Virus record (IMG/VR): IMGVR_UViG_3300032323_001868
Coordinates: 1 to 64,000 of that record
Reading direction: 5' to 3' (one strand)
Length of the DNA stretch: 64,000 nt
Source of the DNA: a virus
Positions 3,979 to 55,166 of the stretch are shown one piece after another. The first letter of the stretch is position 1, and each line of letters opens with the position of its first letter. The notes under the pieces were generated by a model that saw only the letters and a list, made by a program, of their open reading frames with translations, was not told the DNA's origin and did not search any database. The position numbers were made by a program, and so were the translations under genes.

Positions 3979-4010
3979 CGTATGGTATAATTATTAAAAT
4001 TGGAGAATCA

Positions 4011-4685: not shown

Positions 4686-4695
4686 TGGAGTTGAA

Positions 4696-5253
4696 ATGTT
4701 AGAAAAAAAATTTTTAGGTGGTTATGATATCTTTATGTATCCTAATGTTTTTACTATAAAAGAATGTCAAGAGTATATAGATTATTTTGATTCTGAATAT
4801 TCAAAAAAACAAGAAACAAATTCTGAACTAATAGATGGTATTAAACTTGATATACCAATAGAAAATAATAGTACTGGTATTGATCAACACAAAGTTAATA
4901 CTTTAAATAATAAATTTAAGTATTTAACAGAACATGCACATAATATATCAGCAAAACTTACCACTATGCATGGACTAATATGGCAAACTGAATCTTTTGG
5001 TAACTACCACTCAGATAATTCTGATATAGACGGTAATGATATTGGGGCATCGCAATATAAGTTTTCAACAATTTTATACTTAAATGATGATTATCTCGGT
5101 GGAGAAATACTTTTTAGAGACCATGACCTATCGATAAAACTAAATGCTGGGTCCATTCTATCCTTTCCTGGAGGAATTAAAAACATACATAGGATTAACC
5201 GTGTTGCTGAAGGCAAAAGATACAATATAGTTTCATTTTTTGATGTTAACTAA
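4696..5253 (+). CDS. 2OG-Fe(II) oxygenase
   Basis: HSD..LYLNDDY.GGE..H....V..GKRY. Confidence 0.85.
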   Translation: MLEKKFLGGYDIFMYPNVFTIKECQEYIDYFDSEYSKKQETNSELIDGIKLDIPIENNSTGIDQHKVNTLNNKFKYLTEHAHNISAKLTTMHGLIWQTESFGNYHSDNSDIDGNDIGASQYKFSTILYLNDDYLGGEILFRDHDLSIKLNAGSILSFPGGIKNIHRINRVAEGKRYNIVSFFDVN

Positions 5254-17472: not shown

Positions 17473-18159
17473 TCAACACTCTTCTGAAGTGCTAAATGGT
17501 ATATTGTTTACATCATTAAATGAATTGCCATAAAGGGTGTGTCTCCATGATCCAGAAGTTATTTTGTTAACCTTATGCGTAAACTCTTTTGTTACTGGAA
17601 CACCAACCATCATTCCAGCCTTTGGCTTTAGTTTATATGGCTTGTACATAAAATCTAACTCTCCACCTTCAAAATCATCATTTAAATAAATACTAAAAGA
17701 TAGGCTGAAAGGTGGAATTGGAGATGTTTCATCCCACTCAGAATGCCAAGGCATTGCAAAATCAACCACATTTCCATTCATGTTGGACCTTAGTTTTGGA
17801 TCTAAATCTCTATCTATTTCTTCATCTGTGCAATATTTAAATGTTTGAATTGCCCCATGTGCTAGACAGGTCGGTGGCATAACATCCCTAATTCTGGATG
17901 CAACTCCATTTTGACCAAAGAAAAACTCTGGTTGAATATATTTGTCACCTTCAATTGGCAGTCTAGAATTACCATTTTCATCAAGTGGGATATCTACCAT
18001 AGGAAATTTATTTAAAATATTTTTATAAGGTGATCTCATTGTTGTATACCAGCCACGCTTATCATTTATATATGGTTTAAACCAGTCCAACTCTTCTTTT
18101 GTAAGAAAGTTTTCAATATACCATAGGTCTTTTTCAATTACTACTTTTTCAGTGTTCAT
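17473..18159 (-). CDS. 2OG-Fe(II) oxygenase (HxE variant)
   Basis: WHSE..IYLNDDFEGGEL..THKV....G.WR. Confidence 0.8.
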   Translation of the reverse strand: MNTEKVVIEKDLWYIENFLTKEELDWFKPYINDKRGWYTTMRSPYKNILNKFPMVDIPLDENGNSRLPIEGDKYIQPEFFFGQNGVASRIRDVMPPTCLAHGAIQTFKYCTDEEIDRDLDPKLRSNMNGNVVDFAMPWHSEWDETSPIPPFSLSFSIYLNDDFEGGELDFMYKPYKLKPKAGMMVGVPVTKEFTHKVNKITSGSWRHTLYGNSFNDVNNIPFSTSEEC

Positions 18160-18189
18160 AGTAACATTATATCACTTAAATTTTTATAT

Positions 18190-18723
18190 CTATCTAAAAA
18201 AATCAGTTATGCAATATCTATTTCCACTAGTAACAGGGTGCACTCCATGCTTATAGTCATTATAAGCAGGATGAACAATAATAGAATTTTCTACAGGCTT
18301 GAGAACTATATCTTTATTTATATAGTTTATCTCACCTCCATCAAAATTATCATTAATGTAAAAAACTAATCCCTTTTTAATATCTGATGTTTCTAAATTG
18401 CCAGAATTATCTGCGTGTGGATTCATTGCCCATTTAGTTGTGTTGTGATCAAATTGATTCGGTATAATTTTTATTATATTTTTTGATCTAGCAATCTTTA
18501 GTCCTGGCTCAACATAATTTTCTATGTAGTCATACAGGGTGTCAAGAATTAAACACAACTCTGTTATGTTTGCACTTTTTTGATATGAGTATGTATATTC
18601 ATTGCGTGAATAGTTGTGCCAATCGGATTCATCTGCTGCATATTCCTGCAAAGTTTTCAATTGATCTAATTTTAAAATATTTTGAATTTGATATATTTCT
18701 TTATCTATATAAACTTTTTCCAT
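18190..18723 (-). CDS. 2OG-Fe(II) oxygenase
   Basis: HAD..YINDNFDGGEI..HGV.PV.SGNRY. Confidence 0.85.
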   Translation of the reverse strand: MEKVYIDKEIYQIQNILKLDQLKTLQEYAADESDWHNYSRNEYTYSYQKSANITELCLILDTLYDYIENYVEPGLKIARSKNIIKIIPNQFDHNTTKWAMNPHADNSGNLETSDIKKGLVFYINDNFDGGEINYINKDIVLKPVENSIIVHPAYNDYKHGVHPVTSGNRYCITDFFR

Positions 18724-36290: not shown

Positions 36291-37628
36291 ATGGCACGGT
36301 TTACCCAAGCAGGTGGATCAGGTTCGGGAGAACCAGGACCACAGGGCCCAGCAGGAGAAAACGGCACTAATGGCTCAAATGGAGCAGATGGTGCAGATGC
36401 TCTATGGAATTATGTTGGGGAATACAACGGTGGTGCATCATATGCTGTAGGAGATGTTGCAACTTATGATGGACAACTTTGGTACCGTGCTAATGCAAAC
36501 GGTGGAAATGTTGGAGATACACCTTCAGAAGGATTTATCTGGAATTTACTTGCAGCAAAGGGTATTAACGGTGCTGATGGAGCAGATGGCAATGATGGTG
36601 CTCCTGGTGCAGATGGTGCACAGGGAGATACTGGTAGTCCAGGACTTGTTTATTTAGGCAGTTATGTTTCTGGTAATGGATACATTGCAAACATTGCTGT
36701 TGTAAAAGGAAGCGATAACAATCTTTACATAGCAACATCAAGTGGTGGATTAGGAGATCCAGTTGGAAATAGTGCAGAGTGGAGCATATTCCTTCCAAAG
36801 GGTGTTGATGGAGAAGATGCAACTCTTCCACAGGATTTAGGAACAACAGACAGCCCAACATTTAGCAAGATTACACTTACAAGTAACGGGGCAATAGATA
36901 ACATTACAATTGGTGATGATGTACTTATTGGTGATGGAAATATTGCAAACCACTTAGTAATTGTTGGAAATCAAGATTCAACACAAGGTGGAATTGTTCT
37001 TGGTGACAATAAAACTGAACAAGTTTCATCATATGGATCAAATCTTTCTTTATATGCAAACAATGACATTATTCTTAATCCAGCAAGCACATATGCATAT
37101 ATTGGTACACCAACTATCGGTGGAGAAACAAGGATTGCTACTTGGGATTATGTGACAACATCTGTTGGAACAGGTAGCAATGGAGAAGTTACAAGATGGA
37201 CTCCAAACTTTACAGCAACTGGTTTAACATTTACTGGATCAGGTGCTACACATCCAACATACAATTCACACTATGTTAAGAATGGTCGTATGGTATCTTT
37301 TTTTATTGAAATTGATATGGCTACCGTTACAAATTTTGGTACTGGACAATATAAGACAGCGCTTCCATTTGCACCACTTTCTGGAACAATGAATCATTTT
37401 CAGTCATGGTGTCTTGTTGATGAAACTGCTAATCCAGATAATACAGGACATGCTATTTTGCAAGCAGATCATTTAGCAAATACATCAGTTCTTGATTTGC
37501 ACTACATAAAGCAATCTGGTGGAGCAAATTCTCCAGTAATGGAAGCATTGTTTAAGCAGGGTAGCCCAGTAACATTAACTACTGCAACCCATGTTTATAT
37601 CAACGGTACTTACATAACTGCTGAGTAG
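36291..37628 (+). CDS. collagen-like tail fibre protein
   Basis: G-X-Y runs (GEPGPQGPAGENG; GADGADGNDGAPG), Y.VGDV..Y.G..W modules. Confidence 0.75.
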   Translation: MARFTQAGGSGSGEPGPQGPAGENGTNGSNGADGADALWNYVGEYNGGASYAVGDVATYDGQLWYRANANGGNVGDTPSEGFIWNLLAAKGINGADGADGNDGAPGADGAQGDTGSPGLVYLGSYVSGNGYIANIAVVKGSDNNLYIATSSGGLGDPVGNSAEWSIFLPKGVDGEDATLPQDLGTTDSPTFSKITLTSNGAIDNITIGDDVLIGDGNIANHLVIVGNQDSTQGGIVLGDNKTEQVSSYGSNLSLYANNDIILNPASTYAYIGTPTIGGETRIATWDYVTTSVGTGSNGEVTRWTPNFTATGLTFTGSGATHPTYNSHYVKNGRMVSFFIEIDMATVTNFGTGQYKTALPFAPLSGTMNHFQSWCLVDETANPDNTGHAILQADHLANTSVLDLHYIKQSGGANSPVMEALFKQGSPVTLTTATHVYINGTYITAE

Positions 37629-37664
37629 TAGTAAATAGTGATATAGTTATATTTGGGGGTAGAT

Positions 37665-38168
37665 ATGTCATATCAGGTATTTGATAACTTTTTGTTACCT
37701 AACGAATTTAACCAAGTTAAGAACACTGTATGCGATCCAAGATTTCCTTGGGGATATAGTAGTTCTATTACGACTGAAGTAAGCACTGGACCATATGACT
37801 TTCAGTTTGTTCACATGTTTTATCAAAATCATAGAGTTATGTCAGAACACTTTGAATCTATATACCCTTTAATAAACAAAATAAATCCAGCAGCAATCGC
37901 AAGAGTTAAGGCAAATTTAGTTACTAGGAATCCAGTAAGTAACGAGTTTGGATATCACACAGATTTTGAAGATGCACATTTATTGAAGTCAGCGGTATAT
38001 TATTTAGATACAACCGATGGCGTTACCAGGTTTAAGGACGGCACAGAGGTAGAATGCATAGAGAATAGACTATTAGTATTTAACAATAATATGCCACATA
38101 CTTCTACTAGTTGTACGGATCAAAAGGTTAGAAGAGTCATAAATCTCAACTATTATGAACTAATTTAA
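37665..38168 (+). CDS. 2OG-Fe(II) oxygenase (cyanophage-like)
   Basis: RVKANL, YHTD, ENRL.VF, H.S..CTD..R.VIN.NY. Confidence 0.8.
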   Translation: MSYQVFDNFLLPNEFNQVKNTVCDPRFPWGYSSSITTEVSTGPYDFQFVHMFYQNHRVMSEHFESIYPLINKINPAAIARVKANLVTRNPVSNEFGYHTDFEDAHLLKSAVYYLDTTDGVTRFKDGTEVECIENRLLVFNNNMPHTSTSCTDQKVRRVINLNYYELI

Positions 38169-39179: not shown

Positions 39180-39908
39180 ATGGCTATATCAAAGAGCATG
39201 GACTCTCCAGTTAGAAAATCTAATTATGCAGAGCAGGTTGCTCAGTCACAAGGACAAGATCCTACTTTATCTTTCCTACCAGTTCCTGGACCACAAGGAC
39301 CTGCAGGCCCACAAGGTGAAAAAGGTCAACAAGGACCTCAAGGGCCTATTGGTGAAAAAGGTGAAAAGGGTGATCCAGGAAAAGATGGTAAAAATGGAAA
39401 AGATGGCAAGGACGGAAAAAGCGTTTTATCACCTTCTGAGCAACAAATAGGTTGGGCATATTATGAAAATACATCCAAGTCTCAAAAACGGGTAGGAATA
39501 GATCAAGGTGATGATGGCTGGGTTAGGCTTTTAATTGATAGGGTAGGATATAAAAAAAATGAGCAGTACCTGCCAAATGGAGGTGTTTCTCTTTGGAATT
39601 CAACCACAGGCAAGATTAATTTTAAAACCTTAAATATTGGTTCAATCATAACAATACGTTATAATATTTTATTGACTACCTACTCAAACAATACAGAGGT
39701 GTGGTTTAGAACATATGTTGAAGACTCTGATCAAATACCAACCACATATGTAGGCAATCTAAAATACCAGTATGATTATGAATTTACTGTTTCTCAGAAT
39801 ATATTTTTAAATGACTTTGCCATTCAAAATTTTGGTGGTATACCACAGATAAGAACTGATAATGCTGGGGAAGCCCTGCTAAAATCTATATATATATCTG
39901 TATCGTAA
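39180..39908 (+). CDS. collagen-repeat virion protein
   Basis: GPQGPAGPQGEKGQQGPQGPIGEKG..GKDGKNGKDG. Confidence 0.78.
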   Translation: MAISKSMDSPVRKSNYAEQVAQSQGQDPTLSFLPVPGPQGPAGPQGEKGQQGPQGPIGEKGEKGDPGKDGKNGKDGKDGKSVLSPSEQQIGWAYYENTSKSQKRVGIDQGDDGWVRLLIDRVGYKKNEQYLPNGGVSLWNSTTGKINFKTLNIGSIITIRYNILLTTYSNNTEVWFRTYVEDSDQIPTTYVGNLKYQYDYEFTVSQNIFLNDFAIQNFGGIPQIRTDNAGEALLKSIYISVS

Positions 39909-39946
39909 AATAGATAAACTTTAAATAAGTATGCTATAATTCAATT

Positions 39947-40456
39947 ATGCAAAATATCGGTATAACAGACTCCCAGGATGGCCGTAAGCCAGACGCCCCA
40001 ATCATCGGTACAGCAACAGGTGGAAATGCACAAGCATCAGTTGCTTTTACTGCCCCATCAACAACAGGTAAAGGTACTGGAAGTCTTACATATACCGCAA
40101 CATCTAATCCAGGATCTATAACAGGCACAGCATCTTCGTCACCAATTACAGTAACTGGTTTGGCAAATGGAACAGCATATACTTTTACAGTTACACTAAG
40201 TAACGGAACACTTACATCAGATCCATCTTCTGCTTCTAACTCTGTTACTCCAGTTGCTCCACCATTCTTCCCACCATTCTTCCCAGGATTTGGTCCATTC
40301 TTCCCACCGTTCTTCCCACCATTCTTCCCGTTCTTCCCACCGTTCTTCCCATACTTCCCACCGTTCTTCCCGTTCTTCCCGTTCTTCCCACCGTTCTTCC
40401 CGTTCTTCCCACCATCATTTGGACCATGGTTCCCATTCAACGCAACTAGACGATAA
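39947..40456 (+). CDS. fibronectin type III domain protein with (PPFF)n Pro/Phe tail
   Basis: PDAP..ATGGN.QASV.FTAP..Y.AT..VTGL.NGT.YTFTV..S..SNSVTP then 60-aa repeat; leaderless. Confidence 0.82.
   Translation: MQNIGITDSQDGRKPDAPIIGTATGGNAQASVAFTAPSTTGKGTGSLTYTATSNPGSITGTASSSPITVTGLANGTAYTFTVTLSNGTLTSDPSSASNSVTPVAPPFFPPFFPGFGPFFPPFFPPFFPFFPPFFPYFPPFFPFFPFFPPFFPFFPPSFGPWFPFNATRR
40259..40438 (+). repeat. coding tandem repeat of CCR(CCR)TTCTTC units
   Basis: 9/12-nt units; 25 Pro and 29 Phe in 60 codons. Confidence 0.9.
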
Positions 40457-40480
40457 TAGTTTAAATGTAGGGGGTTTGTA

Positions 40481-41053
40481 TTGAATCATATCAATGTGGT
40501 TAAAAACTTTATTGAGCCTGAGCATATAAATAAGTTAACATCTTTTATAGACAACAATATAGAAAAATTTGTGGTATATCAAGATAATAAAAGATATGTA
40601 TGGAGATTTGGTCATGATAATTTTTGGGAAGACTGCAAAAAAGACTTAACACCACTTTCTGAAATTATAGAAATACTTGAAACTAAAATTTTTAACAATA
40701 TGTTAAAAAAAATAAAAGAGTTCTATAATGAAGATCTAGTTATTTCTAGTTTTTGGATATCAAAGCATGAGCCAGGATCCAGAGTCGCTATGCATGAAGA
40801 TACAGATGAGGGTGAAAATACTCATTTTTCTCATAGTGCCGTTCTATACTTAACATCCCTTCAAGATGACGGAGTTATAGAATTTCCTTTTGTTAATTTT
40901 ACTTATACCCCAGTTGCTGGTGAGTTATTGCTTTTCCCATCAAAAGCCATAGACTTTGATTATCAATTTATGCATGAGGTAAAAGAAATAAATAGCCCAA
41001 GGTACAGTATTGCTCTTTGGGCAGCACCAAAAGAATATTCTTTATATGAGTGA
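40481..41053 (+). CDS. 2OG-Fe(II) oxygenase
   Basis: HED..HEV..RY; tandem paralog of next gene. Confidence 0.85.
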   Translation: MNHINVVKNFIEPEHINKLTSFIDNNIEKFVVYQDNKRYVWRFGHDNFWEDCKKDLTPLSEIIEILETKIFNNMLKKIKEFYNEDLVISSFWISKHEPGSRVAMHEDTDEGENTHFSHSAVLYLTSLQDDGVIEFPFVNFTYTPVAGELLLFPSKAIDFDYQFMHEVKEINSPRYSIALWAAPKEYSLYE

Positions 41054-41097
41054 TAAAGATTTAATGTGCTGTGATATAATTAAAAAAGGGGTGTTTT

Positions 41098-41667
41098 TTG
41101 AAACATATTAATGTAATTGAAAACTTTATTGATGATGATACCAATAAACTAATGGTTGACTTCATTAATAATAATCAAGAACTATTTTCGTCAGATCAAG
41201 AGGACAGAAGATTTGCCTTAAGGTTTGGCAAAGATTTTTATTGGCAAGACTCAAATGAAGATATGTCATTGTTAAAGGATTTGTCTAATATCTTTAAAGA
41301 CAAGATTTTTCCTAAAGTTAATAATGTAATCTTTGAACTATACAATGAAAAAAATCTAAAAGTATCTAACGTGTGGCTTTCTAAGCATCTTCCTGGTTCA
41401 ATAGTGCCAATGCACCTAGACCATGATGGATGGAGAAATTCACAGTTTAGATATAGTGCAATACTTTATTTAAGCACATTAGACAATGATGGAATATTGC
41501 AGTTTCCATTTTTAGAGCATAGTTACACACCAGTATCTAATAGTTTAATTATTTTTCCTTCACACGGAATTGATTTTGATGATCAGTTTGCACATCGTGT
41601 AGATAGCATTAATTCTGTAAGATATAGCGTTCCTATGTGGATTTCCGACATAGAATATAGTTTATGA
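41098..41667 (+). CDS. 2OG-Fe(II) oxygenase
   Basis: HLD..HRV..RY. Confidence 0.85.
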   Translation: MKHINVIENFIDDDTNKLMVDFINNNQELFSSDQEDRRFALRFGKDFYWQDSNEDMSLLKDLSNIFKDKIFPKVNNVIFELYNEKNLKVSNVWLSKHLPGSIVPMHLDHDGWRNSQFRYSAILYLSTLDNDGILQFPFLEHSYTPVSNSLIIFPSHGIDFDDQFAHRVDSINSVRYSVPMWISDIEYSL

Positions 41668-41690
41668 TATAATTTAAGAAAGGGGTAATT

Positions 41691-42374
41691 ATGAATACGT
41701 TAGAGCACAAAGGTATAACAGTAAAAGATCTTGGGAGTGGCATTCTTGTTTATAGTAATGTTTTGCCAAGAGATTTAAACATTCCAGAAAGACTAGAAAA
41801 TGTCCTGGGTGGAAATGAAAATATTGTTGACGGCAATCCAGTCAGATATGCCTGGCAACCAGCATATGTAGGGTACCAAGAGTTGATGCCAGACTACAGA
41901 GATTGCGTAGATTTTAAGTATAAGAAGAGTGATCTTTATGATGATGGAACAGAAGAGTATAAGCAACTTGCCAATATCTGGGATGATTGCTATACAACGC
42001 AAAAAGAAGTAGTAGATCATTATTGTGCTAAATTTAATATTCACAACCTAAGATATTGGGAAGCATTTAATTTTATTAAATATGAAAAGGGAGATCACTT
42101 CCAATACCATCACGACCATGGGTTTTCATATAACTGTACAGTTTCTTTAGTTGCATACCTTAATGACAACTATGAGGGTGGAGGTCTTCACTTCCAGCAT
42201 CAAGATATTTTGTATAGACCAGTTGCTGGAGATGTTGTAATCTTTCCTTCAACATATATGTATTCACATAGAGCAATGCCAGTTGAAAATGGAACAAAGT
42301 ATTCTTTGGTTACTATGCTTGATTATAGTGATAAATATCATAAGCCAGAATTTTATCAAGAAACTGGATCATGA
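41691..42374 (+). CDS. 2OG-Fe(II) oxygenase, P4H-like (distal Lys)
   Basis: HHD..YLNDNYEGG..H.A.PV..GTKY. Confidence 0.87.
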   Translation: MNTLEHKGITVKDLGSGILVYSNVLPRDLNIPERLENVLGGNENIVDGNPVRYAWQPAYVGYQELMPDYRDCVDFKYKKSDLYDDGTEEYKQLANIWDDCYTTQKEVVDHYCAKFNIHNLRYWEAFNFIKYEKGDHFQYHHDHGFSYNCTVSLVAYLNDNYEGGGLHFQHQDILYRPVAGDVVIFPSTYMYSHRAMPVENGTKYSLVTMLDYSDKYHKPEFYQETGS

Positions 42375-43102
42375 GCAACACAATAACCTTTACATCAAAC
42401 AAACCTTGGATAACTTTAGACGATTCGTCTTTGCCAACTCCAATTATAAAAACTATTCCAGATTGGTATAGAAAGGCAGACAGATTTGCTAAAAAGCAAG
42501 ATGGAGAATATTGGGAAGATCCAAATGTTGGTGGCAAAATCCCAACATGGAAAGCATGTCCTGCAATATTTGATGTTATGGGTACAGGGTACACTCTTAG
42601 AACTCCTTGCGACATAGAGTTTGTTCAAAGAAGCCCTAACACTATGTCAGTTACAATTGCTGATGCTAAATATAAAGATTTTTGTGTTCCAAGACCAAAA
42701 ATGCCACAGTTTGAACATCCAAGAGGATATTATGAAAATCATTTTGCTTGGTTTTCAGAGTGGGAAATAAAAACACCTACAGGATACAGCATACTGTACT
42801 CACAACCATTTAATAGGTATGAGTTACCATTTTTAACTACATCTGGAATTATTGATAACGATAAGGTTCACTTGCCTGGATCAATGCCTTTCTTTTTAGC
42901 AAAAGGGTTTGAAGGTATTATTCCCGAAGGCACACCTTATGCACAATTAATACCATTTAAAAGAGAAGACTGGAAGTCAGAAGTTAATCTAGAAGATCCT
43001 TCCAAAATTTCTGAAAAAAATTATAAAAATTCTGCCAAGTACAGAGTTCCAGATGGCGGTATATATAAGAATAAAGTGTGGGAACCAAGGAGATACGAAT
43101 AA
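42371..43102 (+). CDS. DUF6065-like protein
   Basis: PDWY..TWKACP..D..GY..GIIDND..GTP.AQ.IPFKR. Confidence 0.55.
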   Translation: MSNTITFTSNKPWITLDDSSLPTPIIKTIPDWYRKADRFAKKQDGEYWEDPNVGGKIPTWKACPAIFDVMGTGYTLRTPCDIEFVQRSPNTMSVTIADAKYKDFCVPRPKMPQFEHPRGYYENHFAWFSEWEIKTPTGYSILYSQPFNRYELPFLTTSGIIDNDKVHLPGSMPFFLAKGFEGIIPEGTPYAQLIPFKREDWKSEVNLEDPSKISEKNYKNSAKYRVPDGGIYKNKVWEPRRYE

Positions 43103-43818
43103 TGAATACCTATGATGAAAATAATAATGTTTGGTTTACAAAAGATAGATCAGAGACAGTATCTAACAGAGTTGTTAGGTCACTTAATGGTGCTATTAAT
43201 GTTGAAAATCCAGGTATAGGTTTAAATATATACACAAATGCTTTTTCTAAAGAAGATGCTGATAGATATATTAATATTCTTGAGTCTAATCTAGGTCAAA
43301 ATAAAAAATACAAGTGGTCAGATGCTACAGTCACAAACTCTCCTAATCCAATTAAAAGGGCAAGAGATTGCGTAGACTTTAAGTATAAGCAAGAAAATTT
43401 AGGGCCAAGAGACAACACAAACGCAGAACTAATAGATTTGCATCAAGAGATATATGAAAAACTAAAGTTGTGTATAGATGACTATGCCAGATACTGGGGT
43501 ATAGAGGTTGTTTATTATGAAGCCTTTAACTTTGTAAAATATGAAGGAGAGGGTACACACTTCAATATCCATGCAGATCATGGTCCAGCATACAACTGCA
43601 CAGTATCTGCAGTTATCTATATTAATGATGACTATGAGGGAGGGGAACTAAAGTTTCCAAGATTAGACAACTATGTTCATAAGCCAAGAGTTGGAGATAT
43701 AGCAGTTTTCCCTTCAAACTATATTTATGAGCATGCATCTCTTCCTATGAAGTCTGGAACTAAATACTGTGTAGTGATTATGACTGATATAAACAAGTTA
43801 GGACATAAAGATTTCTAA
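43102..43818 (+). CDS. 2OG-Fe(II) oxygenase, P4H-like (distal Lys)
   Basis: HAD..YINDDYEGGEL..H...PM..GTKY; paralog of 41691. Confidence 0.87.
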   Translation: MNTYDENNNVWFTKDRSETVSNRVVRSLNGAINVENPGIGLNIYTNAFSKEDADRYINILESNLGQNKKYKWSDATVTNSPNPIKRARDCVDFKYKQENLGPRDNTNAELIDLHQEIYEKLKLCIDDYARYWGIEVVYYEAFNFVKYEGEGTHFNIHADHGPAYNCTVSAVIYINDDYEGGELKFPRLDNYVHKPRVGDIAVFPSNYIYEHASLPMKSGTKYCVVIMTDINKLGHKDF

Positions 43819-44561
43819 TGATTAACTTATCCGCTGAAAAAATGATAGGATGTCCGCTAGTAGTTTCTCCCATGTCTATTAAAAGAGATTGGATGGATGA
43901 AACTCCACAGGGACATGCGTATAGGTGTTTTCCAGTCGGACAGGCCAACATGGTTGGTTGGAGCCTTTCTTGTGTAGACGACATTACCTTTGTTTGGAAC
44001 GGTATAACAGATACTACTTCAGATACAGTGTCTATAGTAGATCAAAAGCCATATCTTTATACTGGTCGTGGTCAATCAACATTAAGTTTTAATACAGGGT
44101 TAGTTTTTAAATCTGACGAAAATATTAGTTTATTAACAATCAACCCAGTAAATTCTTTTAGTTTGGATTTTGAAACTATGTCTTCTTTGATAAGTACATC
44201 ATTTTATGACAACCCGCTACCATTAGCCATTAAAGCCAGGGCTGCTAACAAAGAGGTAACAATAAAAGCAGGAACACCTATAGCAACAATAATTCCTATA
44301 TCATTAACAATGATAAATAACACTACAATCAATATTGTTGATTATTTAGATATAGATAATAAGAGAGCCTTATCAAATCAAGCATACGGTGAGGCAGCAC
44401 AAGTTATCAACCAGTCAGGAAAGTGGACAGACTGGTATAGAGATGCTGTTAATGAAAAGGGTGAGTCAGTCGGACACCATGAGGCAAAAACAATAAAACT
44501 GTCTGTGGTCGATAATACAACTAGTAAAACCAATAATCCTCTAGAGAAAAAAGAGATATAA
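43818..44561 (+). CDS. DUF6065-family protein
   Basis: RDWMD..HAYRCFP...AN..GW..GTP...IIP. Confidence 0.65.
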   Translation: MINLSAEKMIGCPLVVSPMSIKRDWMDETPQGHAYRCFPVGQANMVGWSLSCVDDITFVWNGITDTTSDTVSIVDQKPYLYTGRGQSTLSFNTGLVFKSDENISLLTINPVNSFSLDFETMSSLISTSFYDNPLPLAIKARAANKEVTIKAGTPIATIIPISLTMINNTTINIVDYLDIDNKRALSNQAYGEAAQVINQSGKWTDWYRDAVNEKGESVGHHEAKTIKLSVVDNTTSKTNNPLEKKEI

Positions 44562-44568
44562 TGTAATT

Positions 44569-45297
44569 ATGAACACTAACGAAAACATGCAGGTTGTAAA
44601 GAGGACTGCTTCCCTTACACCTTCTGGATTTTTTGGCAATGGGCCAGAAATGATAGTTGAGTTAGAAAACTTTATGACTCAAGAAGAGATGGATTTTTTA
44701 GAAAAGGCTGCAAAGTCTATAACTATTTGGGATGTTACCCAGAGCCATGTAAATGAGAATGGAACCGTAATATATGATTCAGATTATTGGAAAGATAGGG
44801 TTGCAACTAGCCCAACATTAGATAAAAATGATCCAGCAATTGCTCCAATTATTGCAGGGCTATTTCAAAGACTAAAGCCAATCGTAGAAGAGTTTTATAA
44901 GGTAAAGGTTAACCCAACAGGAACAACCATTGTTAGATGGTTACCTGGACAGTTTCAAAAACCACATGCAGACAAAGAACTACACGAAGGTGTAGACGCT
45001 GGACTTCCAAACGATTTTCCATACTACGATCTGTCAAGTTTGTTTTATTTAAATGAAGACTATGAGGGGGGAGAGTTATACTTTCCGCTACAAGGGGTTC
45101 AGTTTAAACCAAAAAGAGGCGCTGCATATTTTTTCCCAGGGGATATGAACTATATTCATGGCGTTACTGAAATAAAAAGTGGAATAAGATATACCTGTCC
45201 ATTTTTTTGGGAAATTCTAGAACATACTGGAGACAAGCAGCCAGACCCAAATGCTAAGTATCATAGAACACTAATAGATGGAGACATAGAAAAATGA
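44569..45297 (+). CDS. 2OG-Fe(II) oxygenase
   Basis: HAD..YLNEDYEGGEL..HGV..RY. Confidence 0.87.
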   Translation: MNTNENMQVVKRTASLTPSGFFGNGPEMIVELENFMTQEEMDFLEKAAKSITIWDVTQSHVNENGTVIYDSDYWKDRVATSPTLDKNDPAIAPIIAGLFQRLKPIVEEFYKVKVNPTGTTIVRWLPGQFQKPHADKELHEGVDAGLPNDFPYYDLSSLFYLNEDYEGGELYFPLQGVQFKPKRGAAYFFPGDMNYIHGVTEIKSGIRYTCPFFWEILEHTGDKQPDPNAKYHRTLIDGDIEK

Positions 45298-46046
45298 ACT
45301 TAAATAATAAAATTAGATTAACAGAAGATATTCTTTTGTTTGAAAACTTTTTAACAGAAGATGAATCTAAAAAGGCAATTGAGGTTTTAGACCTACAGGC
45401 TACAAACAACACCCTAACCTGGATGCCAATCTCTTTTTATGAGTCATACTCTTCTGTTATCCCGCAAGACAATGATCCCGAATTAGCAGAAATTGGCTTG
45501 CCATTTGACTTTTTTTCAAATGTAAAAAAGGGCATTATCAAAGCAGTTTCATATGTCCATGATATTGATGAGTCTAAACTGGTACAAATCGGATATCATA
45601 CTCAAAAGTGGGAGCCAGGAGCATATGCAACACTACACTCAGACAACACAGACACAGAGGGAAATTCTGGACCATTTGCAAGAAGCAAGTATGCTGCCTT
45701 CTTATACTTAAATGATGATATTGAGGGTGGAGTTTTACAGTTTCCAAGTCACAACATAGTTATTCCACCAAAAACAGGTTTGTTGGCAGCGTTTGCAGGT
45801 GGATTTGATAATATGCATGAAGTAACAATGATAACTAAGGGTGTTAGATATACACTAGGCTCATTTTGGGATGACAAGCAAGAAGAAGAGTACCCAGAAG
45901 AAGTAAGAGCGCAGTGGAAAGAAGAAATGCAAAAGATTAGAGATGCCCAAAAAATAGAAAAAGAAGAGTGGCAAAAGATACTACAAGATGGGTATAAGAT
46001 AGATCAAAATGGAAATAAATATCCTGTCAAGGATTTAGAAAAATGA
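45294..46046 (+). CDS. 2OG-Fe(II) oxygenase
   Basis: HSD..YLNDD.EGG..HEV..RY. Confidence 0.87.
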   Translation: MNLNNKIRLTEDILLFENFLTEDESKKAIEVLDLQATNNTLTWMPISFYESYSSVIPQDNDPELAEIGLPFDFFSNVKKGIIKAVSYVHDIDESKLVQIGYHTQKWEPGAYATLHSDNTDTEGNSGPFARSKYAAFLYLNDDIEGGVLQFPSHNIVIPPKTGLLAAFAGGFDNMHEVTMITKGVRYTLGSFWDDKQEEEYPEEVRAQWKEEMQKIRDAQKIEKEEWQKILQDGYKIDQNGNKYPVKDLEK

Positions 46047-46702
46047 TTCAATCTTTAAAACAAAAAATACAGGATGATGGTTTTGTTGTTAAAGAACCAA
46101 TCAGCGATGTGTTGGTTGTAGAAGATTTTCTTTCTATAGATGAATTGCAACAGTTTAAAAATATTATTAACAATTTAACTGAGGCTGACTGGAACATTGA
46201 ATATACCAAAAACCTAACAAGATTTTGTTTAGAAAAGTTTGGAAGAGACGATGTTGAAAATTTGGTTGCAGAGGGTAAATTTGAAATTACCAGGGGCTGG
46301 GAAGATAAAAACTATAGCATTGCAAATGACCCAATTGTAGAAAACGTTATTACTAAACTAAGTCGTTTAGTTAATTCTGTAGATCCATCGTTAGAGCCTA
46401 GCGGATTAAAAACACTGCAAAGAATGCAAGAAGGTGTTGAACTAAAGGCTCATACAGATCAGCATACAGATCCTTCAATTAGGTATGCTACGATAATTTA
46501 TTTAAATGACAACTATAATGGTGGGGAGTTGTTTTTTAGTGATAAAGATTTGGAGTTAAAGCCAAAGCCAGGTTCTTTAGTCGTGTTTCCAGGAACAGAC
46601 GATTTCAACCATGGTGTAAGGCATGTAGAGGAAGGCCCAATCAGATATGTGCTGGTGGGATTTATAAAAGTTAAAGATTTTTATGAAAATAACAAATACT
46701 AG
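46043..46702 (+). CDS. 2OG-Fe(II) oxygenase
   Basis: HTD..YLNDNY.GGEL..HGV..RY. Confidence 0.87.
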   Translation: MIQSLKQKIQDDGFVVKEPISDVLVVEDFLSIDELQQFKNIINNLTEADWNIEYTKNLTRFCLEKFGRDDVENLVAEGKFEITRGWEDKNYSIANDPIVENVITKLSRLVNSVDPSLEPSGLKTLQRMQEGVELKAHTDQHTDPSIRYATIIYLNDNYNGGELFFSDKDLELKPKPGSLVVFPGTDDFNHGVRHVEEGPIRYVLVGFIKVKDFYENNKY

Positions 46703-46705
46703 GAA

Positions 46706-47347
46706 ATGGAGATAGAAATGGACAAGCAGATACTAGAAGAAAAGGTTTATTACTATACAAAAGTAATTGATGATCCAAAAAAACTTGTTGATGCCATTGA
46801 GAGTGACAATGCAAGCGAATGGGGAGAGTGGGCTGCTTGCAGCGGACAACACTACGTCTACGGTACAGATAAGAGCATTTCTTTGTCTGATGAAAAAGAT
46901 GAATCAAATAACTATATCTACTCTACATTACAAAAGGCTTTTGACGATGTAGCAAGAGACTATGCAAAATCTCAAGGAATTACAGATGAACCAAAACTGT
47001 TTCCTATGTATCCGATTAAAAAGTATCAGGCTGGAACCTTTATGGGTGCACATTTTGACCAACAAGAGGGAGACGAAAGACTAAAGGTTTCTTTTGTTAT
47101 GTATCTAAATGATGATTATGAAGGTGGAGAAATTTCATTTACTATTGCCTCACCAGAAGGCGTACTAAAGACACAGACTCCTCATGCAGATTTTGAAATT
47201 GCCAAAGATGAAGGAAATTATACGTTTTATGTGAAGCCAGAAGCAGGAAGCATTATCGTGTTTCCTCCATCTCCACCATACCACCATACCGCTCATCTGG
47301 TAAAAAGTGGATATAAGTACATGGTTCCACAACACTGGATTCATTAA
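46706..47347 (+). CDS. 2OG-Fe(II) oxygenase (distal Lys)
   Basis: HFD..YLNDDYEGGEI..H.A..V..G.KY. Confidence 0.87.
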   Translation: MEIEMDKQILEEKVYYYTKVIDDPKKLVDAIESDNASEWGEWAACSGQHYVYGTDKSISLSDEKDESNNYIYSTLQKAFDDVARDYAKSQGITDEPKLFPMYPIKKYQAGTFMGAHFDQQEGDERLKVSFVMYLNDDYEGGEISFTIASPEGVLKTQTPHADFEIAKDEGNYTFYVKPEAGSIIVFPPSPPYHHTAHLVKSGYKYMVPQHWIH

Positions 47348-47349
47348 TT

Positions 47350-48018
47350 TTGAAAACTGCAATAGTCACAGGGGCAAGTAAGGGTGTTGGCTATGAAACA
47401 GTCAAACTTTTGTCTAAAAATGGATATAAAGTAATTGCTGTTTCAAGAAACCTTTCTAAAGTTTCTGAGTTAGAGTCTGAAAATGTTGAAACATACAAAC
47501 TAGATATAACAAATTCGGACGAAATAAAAAATTTTTATGAAAAGTATAAAAATATAACATTAGACCTTCTAGTAAACAATGCAGGTGGTGGATCTAGCCC
47601 AACAGACATTATGCACGAAACAATGGCAAACTTTAGAATCGCCTATGACATAAATGTTTCTGGCCCTATGTATCTTTCACAACTGTTTGTGCCATGTATG
47701 AAAAAGTCAAACTCCCCAACTATTATTTTTGTAACATCAATAGGTGGTAATGTTCCATATCCTGGGGGTGGTAACTATACAAATGCTAAACGAGGCGAGA
47801 TAGGTCTTATTGAGACAATGAGGTTAGAGTTTCCATCACACAACATTAAGGTAACAGAGATATGCCCAGGGACTATAGATACTCAACAAGAAAAGAAAGA
47901 TCAAGCGCTTACTGCTGAAGACCTTGCCGAATCTATTTTGTGGGTTTCTTCATTGCCAAGCCATTTTAATGTCAATAGTCTGAATATTAGTCATATCAAT
48001 AATGCAGTTTTTAGATAA
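47350..48018 (+). CDS. short-chain dehydrogenase/reductase
   Basis: TGASKGVG, NNAG, S..YTNAK, CPG. Confidence 0.9.
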   Translation: MKTAIVTGASKGVGYETVKLLSKNGYKVIAVSRNLSKVSELESENVETYKLDITNSDEIKNFYEKYKNITLDLLVNNAGGGSSPTDIMHETMANFRIAYDINVSGPMYLSQLFVPCMKKSNSPTIIFVTSIGGNVPYPGGGNYTNAKRGEIGLIETMRLEFPSHNIKVTEICPGTIDTQQEKKDQALTAEDLAESILWVSSLPSHFNVNSLNISHINNAVFR

Positions 48019-48059
48019 AAAAATACCCTCCTAGCATTGTGCTAAGAGGGTTATTTTTA
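48017..48059. terminator. bidirectional terminator
   Basis: AAAAATA-CCCTC..TAGCA/TGCTA..GAGGG-TTATTTTT between convergent genes. Confidence 0.75.
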
Positions 48060-48065
48060 TTTTAG

Positions 48066-48617
48066 TTAGTGAGGAAATTTTGACATCCAAGACTTAGTTC
48101 TTGGAGTCAACCCCTTCCAAGCGGACCAATCTTCTCCACCATTTGTCATATAATACGCAATCTCTGCATTTTTAACAGGGTTAAAAAGTTCTGCGTTTGA
48201 TTCAAGATCAAACTTAGTTCTGCGATCAGGACCAAGTTGGTCTATCATATTTATTTGAAATACCCCATAAGAAGAATCGCCTGTTCTATGGTTGCCGTTG
48301 TATGCCAAAGGTCGTCCATTAGACTCCTTCTTTGCAACAGCCCAAGCAACCACTAAGTCCCTACCCTCAAATCCAACCAAAGATAGCAAAGTCTTTAGTT
48401 CTGTATCTGTTAGATTTGTCTTATTTTCAAAACGCTCTAATATTTTTACCTTAGAAACCAAAAAAGCCGACTTGTGGTCGGCAGGCTTAACTTCTGAAGA
48501 TTTACTTATTAAATTGTTGTCAGTTGAAAAGTCATCAGCCTTAGCAACATTGCTTACGGGTGCTAACAGTCCAACCAACGATAGGATTCCAATCCAAGCC
48601 ATCTTGTCTCTTCTCAT
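48066..48617 (-). CDS. secreted lytic transglycosylase (lysozyme-like)
   Basis: signal peptide; AVAKKES.G, SYGVFQIN, NP..NA..AY, WSAW. Confidence 0.8.
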   Translation of the reverse strand: MRRDKMAWIGILSLVGLLAPVSNVAKADDFSTDNNLISKSSEVKPADHKSAFLVSKVKILERFENKTNLTDTELKTLLSLVGFEGRDLVVAWAVAKKESNGRPLAYNGNHRTGDSSYGVFQINMIDQLGPDRRTKFDLESNAELFNPVKNAEIAYYMTNGGEDWSAWKGLTPRTKSWMSKFPH

Positions 48618-50994: not shown

Positions 50995-52050
50995 ATGTTT
51001 AGAATGTCTTTATATGCACATCCACATGTAAGAAGATCAGAGTCTTACTTTGGTTATGCATATGCATATAATGAAATTAACAAACACCTAAGAAGATATC
51101 AGCATAACGGAGAAACCATTAATGTTGACATTAATTCTCCAAAGTCAAAAACACAATTATATTTTGGGTCTCCTGATGGATTTTTTTATGACCACCAATA
51201 TAAAATACAAATGACTCAATGGGAATCAACACTTGTTCCCCCACATTGGGTTGATCATGCAAAAAGATATGATGAATGGTGGACGGCCAATCAATTTGGA
51301 GCAGATGCTTTTATAAATGCTGGGGCACCTGCAGAAAAAATACATGTATTTGAACATGGAGTTGATTCATCTATTTGGACTCCAAAAAAACGAGGAACAA
51401 AAGATACAATAAGGTTTTTGCACATAGACTCAGGATCTCCAAGAAAGCGTGGAAGTTTGGCGGTAGAGGCTTTTAAAAAGGCATTTGGAGATAATCCTGA
51501 TTATGAGATAACTCTTAAGTACAGTCATCATGGCGCTTCAGAACAAGATTGGTTCAACGAAAAAGTCTTGGCAAATTATGGAGAGTGGCAAGATATAAAT
51601 GTTCGTCACATTAAAGAAAATTTAACTCTTGAGCATTTGATTAGTTTATTTCATTTTCACGATGTATTAATTTATCCATCAGAAGGCGAAGGGTTTGGAC
51701 TAATTCCACTACAGGCTCTTGCCACTGGAATGCCAGTAATATCAACATCTGATTGGTGCTCTTATGACAAATATTTTCAGGGGAATATAATTGAGTCCCA
51801 CAGAGGAATATCAGATGTAGTAGAAACATATACAAGACACGGAGAGGTCATACTTCCACACCTAGACTCTATGGTTGACCTAATGAAAAAAGCGGCAGAG
51901 AATATTGAAACACAATCAAATTTGTTTTATGGCCAAATATCAGAGGTAGTTAAAGACTATGACTGGCAGTATAGAACAAATATGGCTATAGATTCTTTGA
52001 TTGATAGAATCGGAATAGACATGTTTAAGAATTCTGGGTATTTTCAATGA
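50995..52050 (+). CDS. glycosyltransferase GT4
   Basis: RKRG..AF, YPSEGEGFGL.PLQALATG.PVI. Confidence 0.85.
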   Translation: MFRMSLYAHPHVRRSESYFGYAYAYNEINKHLRRYQHNGETINVDINSPKSKTQLYFGSPDGFFYDHQYKIQMTQWESTLVPPHWVDHAKRYDEWWTANQFGADAFINAGAPAEKIHVFEHGVDSSIWTPKKRGTKDTIRFLHIDSGSPRKRGSLAVEAFKKAFGDNPDYEITLKYSHHGASEQDWFNEKVLANYGEWQDINVRHIKENLTLEHLISLFHFHDVLIYPSEGEGFGLIPLQALATGMPVISTSDWCSYDKYFQGNIIESHRGISDVVETYTRHGEVILPHLDSMVDLMKKAAENIETQSNLFYGQISEVVKDYDWQYRTNMAIDSLIDRIGIDMFKNSGYFQ

Positions 52051-52736
52051 AGTACACCATTATGAAAGTAAATGATCGTGCTATAGAAAACATAAAGCAC
52101 AATCACAATGTATTAAAAAGTTTTGATTACATAGATGATATCAACTTTTTTAATGGAAATACTGAAAATGGCTTTAATGTGTTAAATAATATGGGTATTA
52201 GGCTAGATACATGGCACCCATATGATGGAAGATTAACTGACCCACTTCCAGGAGAATACGGAGTTTGGGTAAGCACTATTAACTTATGGAAATATATTGT
52301 TGATAATAGTATAGAAACTCTATTAGTATTGGAAGACGATATAATTTTGCAAGAAAATTTTTTAGAAAATTTAAATTTATGCTTAAATGATTTGCCAAAA
52401 AACTTTGATTTTTTATCTTTATATTATTTTCAAGGTCAAAACGAAGAATCAGAAATGGTTAACATTGGATCTGAGTTTATTCAAAAATCTAATAACCAGT
52501 ATTCAGCAGCCCAAGCGATGATATATTCTTATGTTGGAGCAAAAAAACTTCTTAAGTTAATAAATAGAAAAGGCATGGAGTATACAAATGATTGTTTTAT
52601 TTATAGACAGTCTTTAGAAGGACTAGTAAATGGGTATTCCATTAAAGGACAAAATGATTTATTTTTAACACATTCTCACAAACAAATAGAGTCAATTATA
52701 GATCCAACAAACTTTAGAAACACAGAGGATGTCTAA
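52047..52736 (+). CDS. glycosyltransferase GT25-like
   Basis: GEYG..S..LW, LVLEDD, GAKKLL. Confidence 0.75.
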   Translation: MKYTIMKVNDRAIENIKHNHNVLKSFDYIDDINFFNGNTENGFNVLNNMGIRLDTWHPYDGRLTDPLPGEYGVWVSTINLWKYIVDNSIETLLVLEDDIILQENFLENLNLCLNDLPKNFDFLSLYYFQGQNEESEMVNIGSEFIQKSNNQYSAAQAMIYSYVGAKKLLKLINRKGMEYTNDCFIYRQSLEGLVNGYSIKGQNDLFLTHSHKQIESIIDPTNFRNTEDV

Positions 52737-53569
52737 TGAATATAACTTTTATAAGTTTTGCAAGCAATTCTTGGAAAAATTCTTTTACCAGAATTAAATC
52801 GCAAATAGATGGATTGGAAATTTTTTCAAATATTGTTTTATTTGATGAGCATATGTTAAAAAATAAAACCAATTTTTATGAAGAAAATAAAACCATATTC
52901 AATGTTTTTCCAAAAGCGTATGGTGGCGGAATATGGAAGCCATACATAATAGAAAAGTGTTTTGAAATTTATCCTGAAACAGATCTATTCTTTTATTCAG
53001 ATAGTGGAAATGAATTTTTTTTTAATGCAGAAAATAAAAATAGATTTAATCAATACACAGAAAAAGCAATAAGAGATTCATTTTTAGCATTTCGTGGCCC
53101 AGTTTTAGAAAATAAGTACAGCCACTGTTCTGTAATTAATGAAATTTATCCTAATGCAAAAGACACAAAGCAGTTCAATTCTGGAACATTGTTTATAAAA
53201 AACAATAAAGTTGGAAAAAAAATAATTGAAGATTGGAAATATTTTTGTATAAAAGATAACTATAGGTTAATTTTGTGTGAAGAAAAATGCTGTGATGATT
53301 TTTATACAAACATATATGATCAATCTATTCTTTCTTGTATATTAAAAAAATATAACATAGAAGGAATTCAAGACGAATGTGATTGGTTTTTAAGTCCCCC
53401 AATGTCTAAAGAAAAAAATATAAAAAAAATACAGGGGTATCCAATTTTTAATGCTAGGAACCCATACAAATACTCTATAATTGATAAATGTTTAAAATAC
53501 CACGACGGAGTTAAGTGTGTTCATTTTGACAACGATAAGTATTGCGAAGACACAGTTATTTTGAGATAA
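52736..53569 (+). CDS. putative glycosyltransferase
   Basis: WKPYII, YSDSG, DQSILS. Confidence 0.55.
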   Translation: MNITFISFASNSWKNSFTRIKSQIDGLEIFSNIVLFDEHMLKNKTNFYEENKTIFNVFPKAYGGGIWKPYIIEKCFEIYPETDLFFYSDSGNEFFFNAENKNRFNQYTEKAIRDSFLAFRGPVLENKYSHCSVINEIYPNAKDTKQFNSGTLFIKNNKVGKKIIEDWKYFCIKDNYRLILCEEKCCDDFYTNIYDQSILSCILKKYNIEGIQDECDWFLSPPMSKEKNIKKIQGYPIFNARNPYKYSIIDKCLKYHDGVKCVHFDNDKYCEDTVILR

Positions 53570-53578
53570 GGATAAATA

Positions 53579-54259
53579 GTGATAGAAAAAATTGTTTATG
53601 ATTTTGGTGCACACAATGGAAGCAATATTCCATACTATCTTGCTATATTTGATAAAGTTATTGCAGTAGAGGCAAACCCAACACTATCTAATGAAATTGT
53701 TAACAAGTTTAAGAACGAAATAGACAGCAATAGGCTGGTTGTTTTAAACAATGTCATATCATTAAAATCAGAAATGGTTGATTTCTATATACATGAGCAC
53801 AACTCTGTTCTTAGTCAATTTCCAGTTCCAAGTGACATTGAAAATTTTAAAAAAATTTATATTGAATCAAAAACCCCATCAGAAATTATAAATACGTATG
53901 GTGATCCAGAATATGTTAAAATAGATGTAGAGCATACAGATGCAGAGATTCTTAAAGATTTATTTATAAATAAAATATTTCCAAGGTATATTTCTGCAGA
54001 AGTTCACGATGTTACTGTTTTTAGCCTACTAACCTCATCTAACGTGTATAACAGTTATAAAATTTTAGATGGAAAAAGTATTAGCAGCATTTATGAAAAC
54101 ATAAACATAAATGAAAAAAAATATAGTTTTCCATTTCATTCAGCAGGACCAATGTTTGAAGACATAAAGTCTCCAGAACTAAATAAAGAACAATTGTTTT
54201 ATTTACTTGCAGAAGAAAGGTTGGGGTGGAAAGACATTCATGCCAAGAGGTCATACTAA
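53579..54259 (+). CDS. FkbM-family methyltransferase
   Basis: DFGAHNG, AVEANP, KIDVE. Confidence 0.78.
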   Translation: MIEKIVYDFGAHNGSNIPYYLAIFDKVIAVEANPTLSNEIVNKFKNEIDSNRLVVLNNVISLKSEMVDFYIHEHNSVLSQFPVPSDIENFKKIYIESKTPSEIINTYGDPEYVKIDVEHTDAEILKDLFINKIFPRYISAEVHDVTVFSLLTSSNVYNSYKILDGKSISSIYENININEKKYSFPFHSAGPMFEDIKSPELNKEQLFYLLAEERLGWKDIHAKRSY

Positions 54260-54260
54260 A

Positions 54261-55166
54261 ATGACACTATCGCTTGTTACTGGTGGTGCAGGGTTTATTG
54301 GGTCTAACTTAGTAGATAAGTTGATTGAATTAGGACATAGGGTTATTGCTATAGACAATGAATCTTCAGAATGCCATGATCAATTTTATTGGAACGAAAA
54401 GGCACAAAATTACAAGTATGATATCTGTGACTACGACTTGATTGCTCCACTATTTGATAAAGTTGATTATGTTTTTCATCTGGCTTCAGATGCAAGAATT
54501 CAGCCAGCAATTGTTAATCCTAAAAAATCTATTGAGTCAAACATTTTAGGTACAACAAATGTAATAGAACTTTCTAGAAAAAATAACATAAAAAGATTTA
54601 TTTATTCAAGTACATCTTCAGCATATGGCAAAAATAATACGGTACCAAATGTTGAGGATCAACATCCAGATCCTTTGACCCCGTATTCTTCTGCAAAAGT
54701 ATTTGGAGAACATCTTTGTAAAATATATAGTAGTTTATACAACCTAAACACAATATCCTTAAGGTATTTTAATGTTTATGGGAATAGACAACCACTTAAA
54801 GGCCAATACGCTCCAGTTGTTGGATTATTTTTAAGGCAAAGAATAGAGGGGGTTCCACTAACAATTGTTGGGGATGGAGAGCAAAAAAGAGATTTTACTC
54901 ATATATCAGATGTTGTAAATGCAAACATTATTGCAGCAATACAGTACTTGCCCGATTCTTGCTACGGTCAAGTTTACAACATAGGAACTGGCAAAAACTA
55001 TTCAATTAATCAGATTGCTGGTTCTATCTCTAGCCTAGTAAAGTTTGTGCCAGAAAGGCCAGGAGAATCCCGTATTACTCTTGCAAATAATGATAAGGCA
55101 AAGGAAATTTTTGGGTGGTACCCAACAGTAGACCTGTTAGACTGGATATACAAACAAAATCATTAA
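54261..55166 (+). CDS. NAD-dependent nucleotide-sugar epimerase/dehydratase
   Basis: TGGAGFIGS, SSTSSAYG, YSSAK, LRYFNVYG, RDFTH. Confidence 0.9.
   Translation: MTLSLVTGGAGFIGSNLVDKLIELGHRVIAIDNESSECHDQFYWNEKAQNYKYDICDYDLIAPLFDKVDYVFHLASDARIQPAIVNPKKSIESNILGTTNVIELSRKNNIKRFIYSSTSSAYGKNNTVPNVEDQHPDPLTPYSSAKVFGEHLCKIYSSLYNLNTISLRYFNVYGNRQPLKGQYAPVVGLFLRQRIEGVPLTIVGDGEQKRDFTHISDVVNANIIAAIQYLPDSCYGQVYNIGTGKNYSINQIAGSISSLVKFVPERPGESRITLANNDKAKEIFGWYPTVDLLDWIYKQNH

Follow-up and report, generated by a model that had tools for sequence, protein, structure and literature searches.

Phages of aquatic habitats carry from a few to two dozen 2-oxoglutarate (2OG)-Fe(II) oxygenase genes each. According to a 2022 paper, the functions of these phage genes "have not been specifically investigated" (PMC9602691). 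In Synechococcus phage Syn9, gp41 to gp54 form a tandem dioxygenase array with tryptophan halogenases, a JmjC/MINA-type member, and a dUTPase-fold protein (Iyer et al., 2010; PMC2938197), and this array lies directly past the tail-fiber genes. By analogy, the closest mechanistic precedents are the prolyl 4-hydroxylase (P4H) of PBCV-1, which hydroxylates Pro-containing peptides in vitro (PMC7019647), together with Pro-rich viral repeats, and mimivirus L230 together with viral collagen. The locus described here lies at positions 39947 to 48018 of a 64,000-nucleotide stretch (the window), which is the first 64 kb of the 89.8-kb IMG/VR virus record IMGVR_UViG_3300032323_001868, estimated to be 82% complete. 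It comprises a gene for a 169-amino-acid (aa) protein with a Pro-Phe tail and, behind it, 11 tightly packed, co-oriented genes encoding eight PF13640 oxygenases, one DUF6065 protein, one DUF6065-like protein, and one short-chain dehydrogenase/reductase (SDR). Arrays of this kind are already known from Syn9; the new element is the Pro-Phe tract as their constant partner.

The Syn9 and window arrays are alike in having many distantly related 2OG-Fe(II) dioxygenases in co-oriented tandem and a dUTPase-fold protein with a conserved Cys; Syn9 gp43 matches the DUF6065 profile (E = 7e-7) and the DUF6065-like protein of the window (E = 2e-6). They differ in that Syn9 has two tryptophan halogenases and the JmjC/MINA-type member, none of which occurs in the window array (Pfam and NCBIfam detected no halogenase or JmjC/cupin_4 domain in its eleven genes), whereas in the window all oxygenases belong to PF13640, a second DUF6065-like gene and an SDR are present, and the tract gene stands at the head. 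Just 5' of the halogenases and the array of Syn9, gp40 (L372, 12455-12949) contains 7 Trp in 164 residues and might be the Syn9 equivalent of the tract protein.

The tract gene (39947-40456, plus strand) encodes an FN3-like domain followed by a C-terminal P(P)[F/Y]F tract that ends in NATRR. The Pfam fn3 match at residues 30 to 96 (40034-40234) has an E value of 2.7e-4 and a score of 21.5 bits, below the 25-bit cut-off; the assignment is backed by many homologs with PF00041, and the nearest cellular FN3 relatives are actinobacterial. From residue 102 on, the tail is organized in PPFF and PFF units, with 26 Pro and 29 Phe in total, of which 25 Pro and 29 Phe fall within the 60 residues preceding NATRR. 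The tract (40247-40444) is also a DNA tandem repeat of TTC and CCA/CCG codons, for which Tandem Repeats Finder reported 9-, 12-, and 21-nucleotide (nt) repeats at 40259-40413. Its Phe codons are TTC and TTT in a proportion of 27:2, compared with 38:210 in 18 other genes of the window. The composition and codon bias of the tract are far beyond chance, and it is the only Pro-Phe tract in the whole record. The protein ends 5 residues past the tract and has no S74 chaperone domain. Two other open reading frames (ORFs) overlap the gene, one of 168 aa on the opposite strand with a GKNG-type repeat (39934-40440) and one of HHSS type in the +1 frame (40254-40484), and both are read as shadows of the repeat. 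Three features led to the rejection of a role of the repeat at the DNA or RNA level or as a leader-peptide-like attenuator: folded domains share the reading frame of the tract, synonymous variation is seen among its Pro codons, and relatives carry S74, Hint, or Cys-rich domains downstream of it.

All genes of the block are on the plus strand, with gaps of -25 to +44 nt between them. The tract gene is followed by ox1 (40481-41053), ox2 (41098-41667), ox3 (41691-42374), the DUF6065-like gene (42371-43102; phrog_7084, no Pfam match), ox4 (43078-43818; translation may actually begin at the ATG at 43099), the DUF6065 gene (43818-44561; Pfam E = 3.5e-26), ox5 (44569-45297), ox6 (45294-46046), ox7 (46043-46702), ox8 (46706-47347), and a classical SDR gene with the TGxxxGxG and YxxxK motifs (47350-48018; adh_short E = 6e-43). 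A 12-bp hairpin (48025-48051), preceded by an A-run and followed by a T-run, forms a bidirectional intrinsic terminator common to the block and the convergent lysozyme-like gene. The block is read as one operon because its genes overlap or nearly abut and share a single terminator. An earlier, sequence-only reading of this stretch was right in every particular on the gene content, tail composition, codon bias, and terminator. A promoter-like site at 39911-39940 (TAGATA-18-TATAAT with an upstream TG) ends 7 nt 5' of the tract-gene ATG and, if real, would leave the tract-gene mRNA leaderless or nearly so; promoter-like sites are no more frequent in the tract-gene region than in shuffled sequence.

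The association of tracts with arrays was followed through loci retrieved by three independent routes, namely, by the tract protein (79 loci), by DUF6065 (two clades), and by a (PPFF)3 DNA pattern alone. Most tract genes obtained by the first route lie directly 5' of an oxygenase/DUF6065 array. For the second route, the count covered arrays preceded by 3 kb or more of sequence, and a tract was sought within 3 kb upstream; one was present in 35/35 and 41/41 arrays (76/76 together) and, in a further count, in 43/43. The DUF6065 proteins of these loci fall into 51 clusters at 90% identity and into 9 at 70%, and the arrays that appeared to be tract-less turned out to have small tract genes overlooked by the ORF caller. 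By the third route, an array gene was found within 3 kb downstream of 82 of the 90 assessable tract genes. The distance from tract to array is often 20 to 700 nt and, in most loci, tens to hundreds of nucleotides. Among FN3 homologs, an array is nearby in 50 of 59 with a tract versus 2 of 19 without one (Fisher p = 6e-9, not corrected for relatedness). The co-occurrence of tract and oxygenase set, which the sequence-only reading had proposed as a check, is borne out by these counts (76/76, 82/90, and 2/19 for the tract-less FN3 homologs).

The association also persists when the locus is rearranged. A conserved slot holds a collagen-like gene and then the tract gene, followed by a convergent lysozyme gene; when the tract gene in this slot has no array behind it, the array lies elsewhere on the contig with a second tract gene at its head (L008, L009, L011, L024, L034, L044, and L053). 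Tracts with a non-FN3 head likewise lie 5' of arrays, and an ox3 ortholog is paired with DUF6065 in both phage groups. The link is kept across at least six gene arrangements and different head domains, which indicates that the tract itself, and not FN3 or the position, goes with the enzymes. These data support a functional connection of the oxygenase set with the Pro-Phe tail, and the tract is a testable candidate substrate for the phage oxygenases.

The tract protein family comprises 1204 protein clusters at an E value of 0.01 or below, part of them FN3-only, and spans hundreds of IMG/VR contigs. In 107 distinct tract proteins, the commonest units are PPFF (728), PFF (518), PPYF (100), and PYF (57), and in these four the second aromatic residue is always Phe. 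Across the family, 84% of the Phe codons in tracts are TTC, compared with 14.5% of those outside them, which makes the bias a family trait rather than an accident of recent repeat expansion; CCG is also enriched inside tracts. Avoidance of T homopolymers and fast, accurate decoding are possible causes of the TTC bias. The head of a tract protein may be one, two, or more FN3 domains or a non-FN3 head of about 55 residues. The tract is followed by nothing, as in the window, by a small Cys-rich domain, by Peptidase_S74, an intramolecular chaperone characteristic of tail fibers and spikes (directly past the tract in L019, E = 6e-12; in L134 as a split ORF), or by a Hint/intein-like self-cleaving domain (L012 and L005), and FN3-like domains past the tract also occur. 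S74 and Hint would each leave the tract as the mature C terminus, which is the end state of the window protein. This end state, together with the position between collagen-like fiber genes and a lysozyme-like gene, suggests that the tract protein is a fiber-associated virion protein.

Several further features of the family were observed. A split S74 after the tract occurs in some relatives (L134:3700-4120, L144, and L152), with the S-x-R-F-K-H-S-I start in the tract ORF and the remainder in the next ORF of 93 aa. Small genes recur between the tract gene and the array, encoding a 142-aa protein of no family (L094:3364-3789), an 80-aa Cys-rich DUF6171-like protein (L143:7558-7797), and a 258- to 268-aa protein without a Pfam match (L134:4192-4965). 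In a subset of loci (L205, L209, L216, L221, L222, L223, L225, L237, L242, and L243), the tract gene is small and lacks FN3, and its tract frame, for example, at L242:6840-7260, has no start codon near the 5' end. A good Shine-Dalgarno sequence and ATG open an ORF of 23 to 30 codons in the frame one base upstream, and ribosomes would have to change frame within a span of 3 to 5 codons around GCN-CGG-A; the Arg codon CGG is seldom used in these genomes. From the sequence, this looks like a programmed +1 frameshift at a hungry codon, conserved in at least 10 diverged contigs.

All eight array oxygenases pass the curated PF13640 cut-off of 27 bits, with scores of 28.0 to 54.7 bits. The HxD...H motif and the basic 2OG-binding Arg/Lys are intact in all nine aligned oxygenases (the eight of the array and that at 37653-38168), and H140, D142, H193, and K203 are invariant in 35 ox3 orthologs. 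Pairwise identities among these oxygenases are 12 to 30% (mostly 17 to 30% among the eight of the array), except for ox1/ox2 (46%) and ox3/ox4 (41%), and the enzymes are read as old paralogs rather than a recent amplification. A profile of the 35 ox3 orthologs matches Bacillus anthracis P4H (E = 3e-7) and then PiuC, P3H1, and LH3; weak sequence matches to the lysyl hydroxylases LH3 and mimivirus L230 were also found. The AlphaFold model of ox3, the only oxygenase modeled, has a predicted local distance difference test (pLDDT) score of 88.2, and its predicted fold is prolyl-hydroxylase-like. The best Foldseek matches are the HIF prolyl hydroxylase PHD2, Pseudomonas PPHD, PBCV-1 vCPH, B. anthracis P4H, and human C-P4H-II (E = 2e-9 to 3e-8), with the mimivirus lysyl hydroxylase also among the best, and an algal P4H (Chlamydomonas) and the small-molecule enzyme PolD are further fold neighbors. 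An NCBIfam scan of the array genes gave only subthreshold generic matches. By profile and predicted fold, the array enzymes are protein prolyl/lysyl-hydroxylase-like, and the P4H-type nature ascribed to them from the sequence is borne out in this sense; hydroxylation of proline is a prediction.

Besides Syn9, three systems are among the closest known comparisons. PBCV-1 resembles the window in combining a virus-encoded P4H-type enzyme (vCPH, PDB 5c5t) with virus-encoded Pro-rich repeats, and it differs in being a eukaryotic virus whose single enzyme is encoded apart from its putative substrates. The PBCV-1 repeats, reportedly described by Eriksson et al. in 1999, are said to be Pro-Ala-Pro-Lys-like and not Pro-Phe. 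Mimivirus L230 (PDB 6ax6/6ax7) is likewise a viral 2OG hydroxylase for the virus's own collagen-like fiber proteins; its match to ox3 is weak in sequence and clear in fold, and the window has collagen-like genes and a glycosylation cassette nearby. However, L230 is one bifunctional hydroxylase/glycosyltransferase that acts on Lys in Gly-X-Y, and the window repeat has neither Lys nor Gly-X-Y. In extensins, the hydroxyproline-rich glycoproteins of plants and algae, which are modified by type I P4Hs (Chlamydomonas P4H, PDB 2jig/3gze), Pro-rich repeats of the polyproline-II type are hydroxylated and glycosylated to give stiff rods; they differ in having Ser-Pro(n) repeats and in being hydrophilic and eukaryotic.

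The DUF6065 protein has 826 relatives in a search of 1.8 billion representatives. A model built from a 95-sequence alignment has a pLDDT of 94.6, and both Foldseek and an all-against-all structural search (VIA) place it in the dUTPase/dCTP deaminase fold: this superfamily fills the top 23 structural rows, with Z values up to 10.1, ahead of the next unrelated row at a Z of 3.8. The DUF6065 profile gave no match at an E value of 1 or below to PDB sequences, including solved dUTPases. Cys37 is near-invariant (at least 90% conserved). The ORF at 42371-43102 is related to that at 43818-44561 (BLASTP E = 2e-5). Natural DUF6065 fusions to PF13640 oxygenases (P0289, P0302, P0305, and P0388) and to a sulfotransferase (P0337) argue that DUF6065 proteins work together with such modifying enzymes. 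A tblastn search with the DUF6065-like protein recovered only haloarchaeal tailed viruses and one cyanophage, where the gene context was uninformative; among INPHARED phages, megablast with the 8-kb block and tblastn with the tract protein and DUF6065 gave nothing useful. The phrog_7084 family is present in about 50 haloarchaeal tailed viruses, beside a tail-fiber/adhesin block and a ribonucleotide reductase gene, as in Haloarcula virus HJTV-2 (L169, 4857-5693).

On balance, it is probable that the tract is a substrate encoded in cis whose prolines are hydroxylated by the oxygenases, with DUF6065-type proteins as partners and the SDR in a redox step, to give a modified, fiber-associated tail. 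The block would be a late fiber-module operon in which the first gene encodes the substrate and the later genes encode the modifying enzymes. Eight anciently diverged oxygenases, catalytically intact as judged by motif, would oxidize the roughly 60-residue P(P)[F/Y]F tract, most likely by forming hydroxyproline from proline at multiple sites or in more than one sequence context, and other residues or further oxidation states may be involved. The two dUTPase-fold DUF6065-type proteins may act as partner subunits for substrate binding or enzyme scaffolding, and the SDR may carry out a follow-up redox step. The chemical alteration would make the C-terminal tail of the fiber-associated protein stiffer and less hydrophobic, and a glycosylation cassette 3 kb downstream of the block (50995-55166), in which GT4 and epimerase members were verified, could act on the new hydroxyls. 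We infer each of these elements, from the tract as substrate and the modified residues to the roles of DUF6065 and the SDR and the location in the virion. The virion-appendage setting proposed in the sequence-only reading fits the position in the fiber module and the tract-S74 and tract-Hint relatives.

In this lake-phage assemblage, the oxygenase arrays have a constant, genetically linked partner that is a biochemically sensible substrate, a Pro-rich repeat for prolyl-hydroxylase-like enzymes. If the proposed modification takes place, these phages would encode extensive post-translational modification of virion-associated proteins, the dUTPase-fold family DUF6065 would have a new role, and the modified tract would be a new repeat material. 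More tentatively, the heavily oxidized Pro/Phe tract may be a previously unknown biopolymer segment, a "phage extensin," built by 8 to 13 hydroxylases and a dUTPase-fold partner and serving as the business end of a fiber protein for adhesion, stiffness, or evasion. Were this so, it would provide the first defined substrate for the orphan multicopy 2OG-Fe(II) oxygenases of aquatic phages. No description of the Pro-Phe tract was found in the searchable literature on DUF6065, PPFF, and phage P4Hs with freshwater actinobacteria.

A number of observations weigh against the tract as the substrate of the array. The linkage counts are inflated by shared ancestry, the loci being related and not independent events, and the translocations and differing heads are more telling evidence than the counts. 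Arrays without the repeat protein, which would speak against the sequence-only reading if they were common, were not common within this phage assemblage; Syn9, however, has an array of this kind, including the DUF6065-like gp43, with no Pro-Phe tract in 20 to 60 kb. Oxygenases without a neighboring tract also occur in the window itself. A mini-cluster at 2948-5253 has no Pro-Phe tract beside it and consists of a DUF6065-like gene (2948-3670), four tRNA genes (3675-3979), and two P4H-like oxygenase genes (4011-4685 and 4696-5253), and two further oxygenases on the minus strand (17473-18723) likewise have no tract beside them. In a distant phage clade, a DUF6065 gene (L163:6700-11300, 32% identical) is found without a 2OG oxygenase or tract and adjoins a sulfotransferase and a convergent cytochrome P450 gene, and the DUF6065 genes of alphaproteobacterial metagenome-assembled genomes are solitary and without tracts, one of them lying inside a fabD-fabG-fabF operon. 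Eight to 13 enzymes seem excessive for a two-residue repeat, and the nearby collagen-like proteins are alternative substrates. PBCV-1 virions contain no detectable hydroxyproline (PMC7019647), and a search of RNA sequencing runs found none with this stretch.

The least improbable alternative, itself unlikely, is that the array targets other things, such as Lys or Pro of the collagen-like proteins, other virion proteins, or components of the host envelope, and that the Pro-Phe protein is a structural neighbor, adaptor, scaffold, or decoy. Collagen-like genes are present at 36291-37628 and 39180-39908, the first with a P4H-like gene directly 3' of it, ox3 weakly matches LH3 and L230, the oxygenases located elsewhere in the genome lack a neighboring tract, and Iyer et al. 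(2010) suggested that dioxygenases act on collagen-like and tail-collar proteins encoded alongside them. However, an array that has moved takes the tract gene along and leaves the collagen-like gene behind, the distance from tract to array is short in most loci, and arrays are nearly absent at tract-less FN3 homologs.

More doubtful is a small-molecule pathway of the secondary-metabolite kind, in which the array would adjoin the tract because both use a common hypervariable slot near the fiber genes. Iyer et al. (2010) read the Syn9 array in this way, and an SDR, the P450 and sulfotransferase genes beside distant DUF6065 genes, and PolD among the structural neighbors of ox3 are consistent with it. 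However, no nonribosomal peptide synthetase, polyketide synthase, ATP-grasp, or halogenase was detected in the array with Pfam, the closest folds and profiles are overwhelmingly those of protein hydroxylases, and the link to the tract is kept across at least six arrangements and different head domains. There is little probability that the oxygenase genes serve as auxiliary metabolic genes directed at host physiology, through 2-oxoglutarate/nitrogen status or host proteins such as EF-Tu, with the tract as an unmodified hydrophobic anchor or adhesin. This is the usual reading of cyanophage 2OG oxygenases in the literature (PMC9602691), and the EF-Tu prolyl hydroxylase PPHD is among the structural neighbors of ox3; however, the genes lie in a structural module, translationally coupled to the tract gene and sharing one terminator, and this reading would not predict the linkage statistics. 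It is very improbable that the tract is the precursor of a ribosomally synthesized and post-translationally modified peptide (RiPP), cut out as modified and possibly cyclic Pro-Phe peptides with FN3 as leader or carrier, as the precursor-plus-tailoring layout, the Hint and S74 ends that would free the tract C terminus in relatives, and the very weak resemblance of ox6 to a 2OG oxygenase of cyclophane peptides (E = 0.003, well short of the cut-off) might suggest, given that no protease, macrocyclase, RiPP recognition element, or transporter was detected in the 11 array genes (Pfam, with NCBIfam also scanned), that the tract is always fused to folded domains, with Cys-rich or FN3-like domains past it in many relatives, and that S74 chaperones mark fiber proteins. 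The released cyclic peptides once suggested for this locus are thus without support, and the likeness of PPFF to the core motif of antamanide and cyclolinopeptide is a coincidence of motif.

The genes that flank the block conform to the slot seen in relatives. The collagen-like fiber-region gene (39180-39908, plus strand) is kept just 5' of the tract gene in relatives, and the SLT_3 lysozyme-like gene (48066-48617, minus strand) marks the module boundary there. Farther upstream, a weaker P4H-like oxygenase gene (37653-38168, plus strand; PF13640 at 23.5 bits, below the cut-off, with HxD..H..R intact) begins 24 nt past the collagen-like gene at 36291-37628 (plus strand), and the two may be a second substrate-plus-hydroxylase pair.

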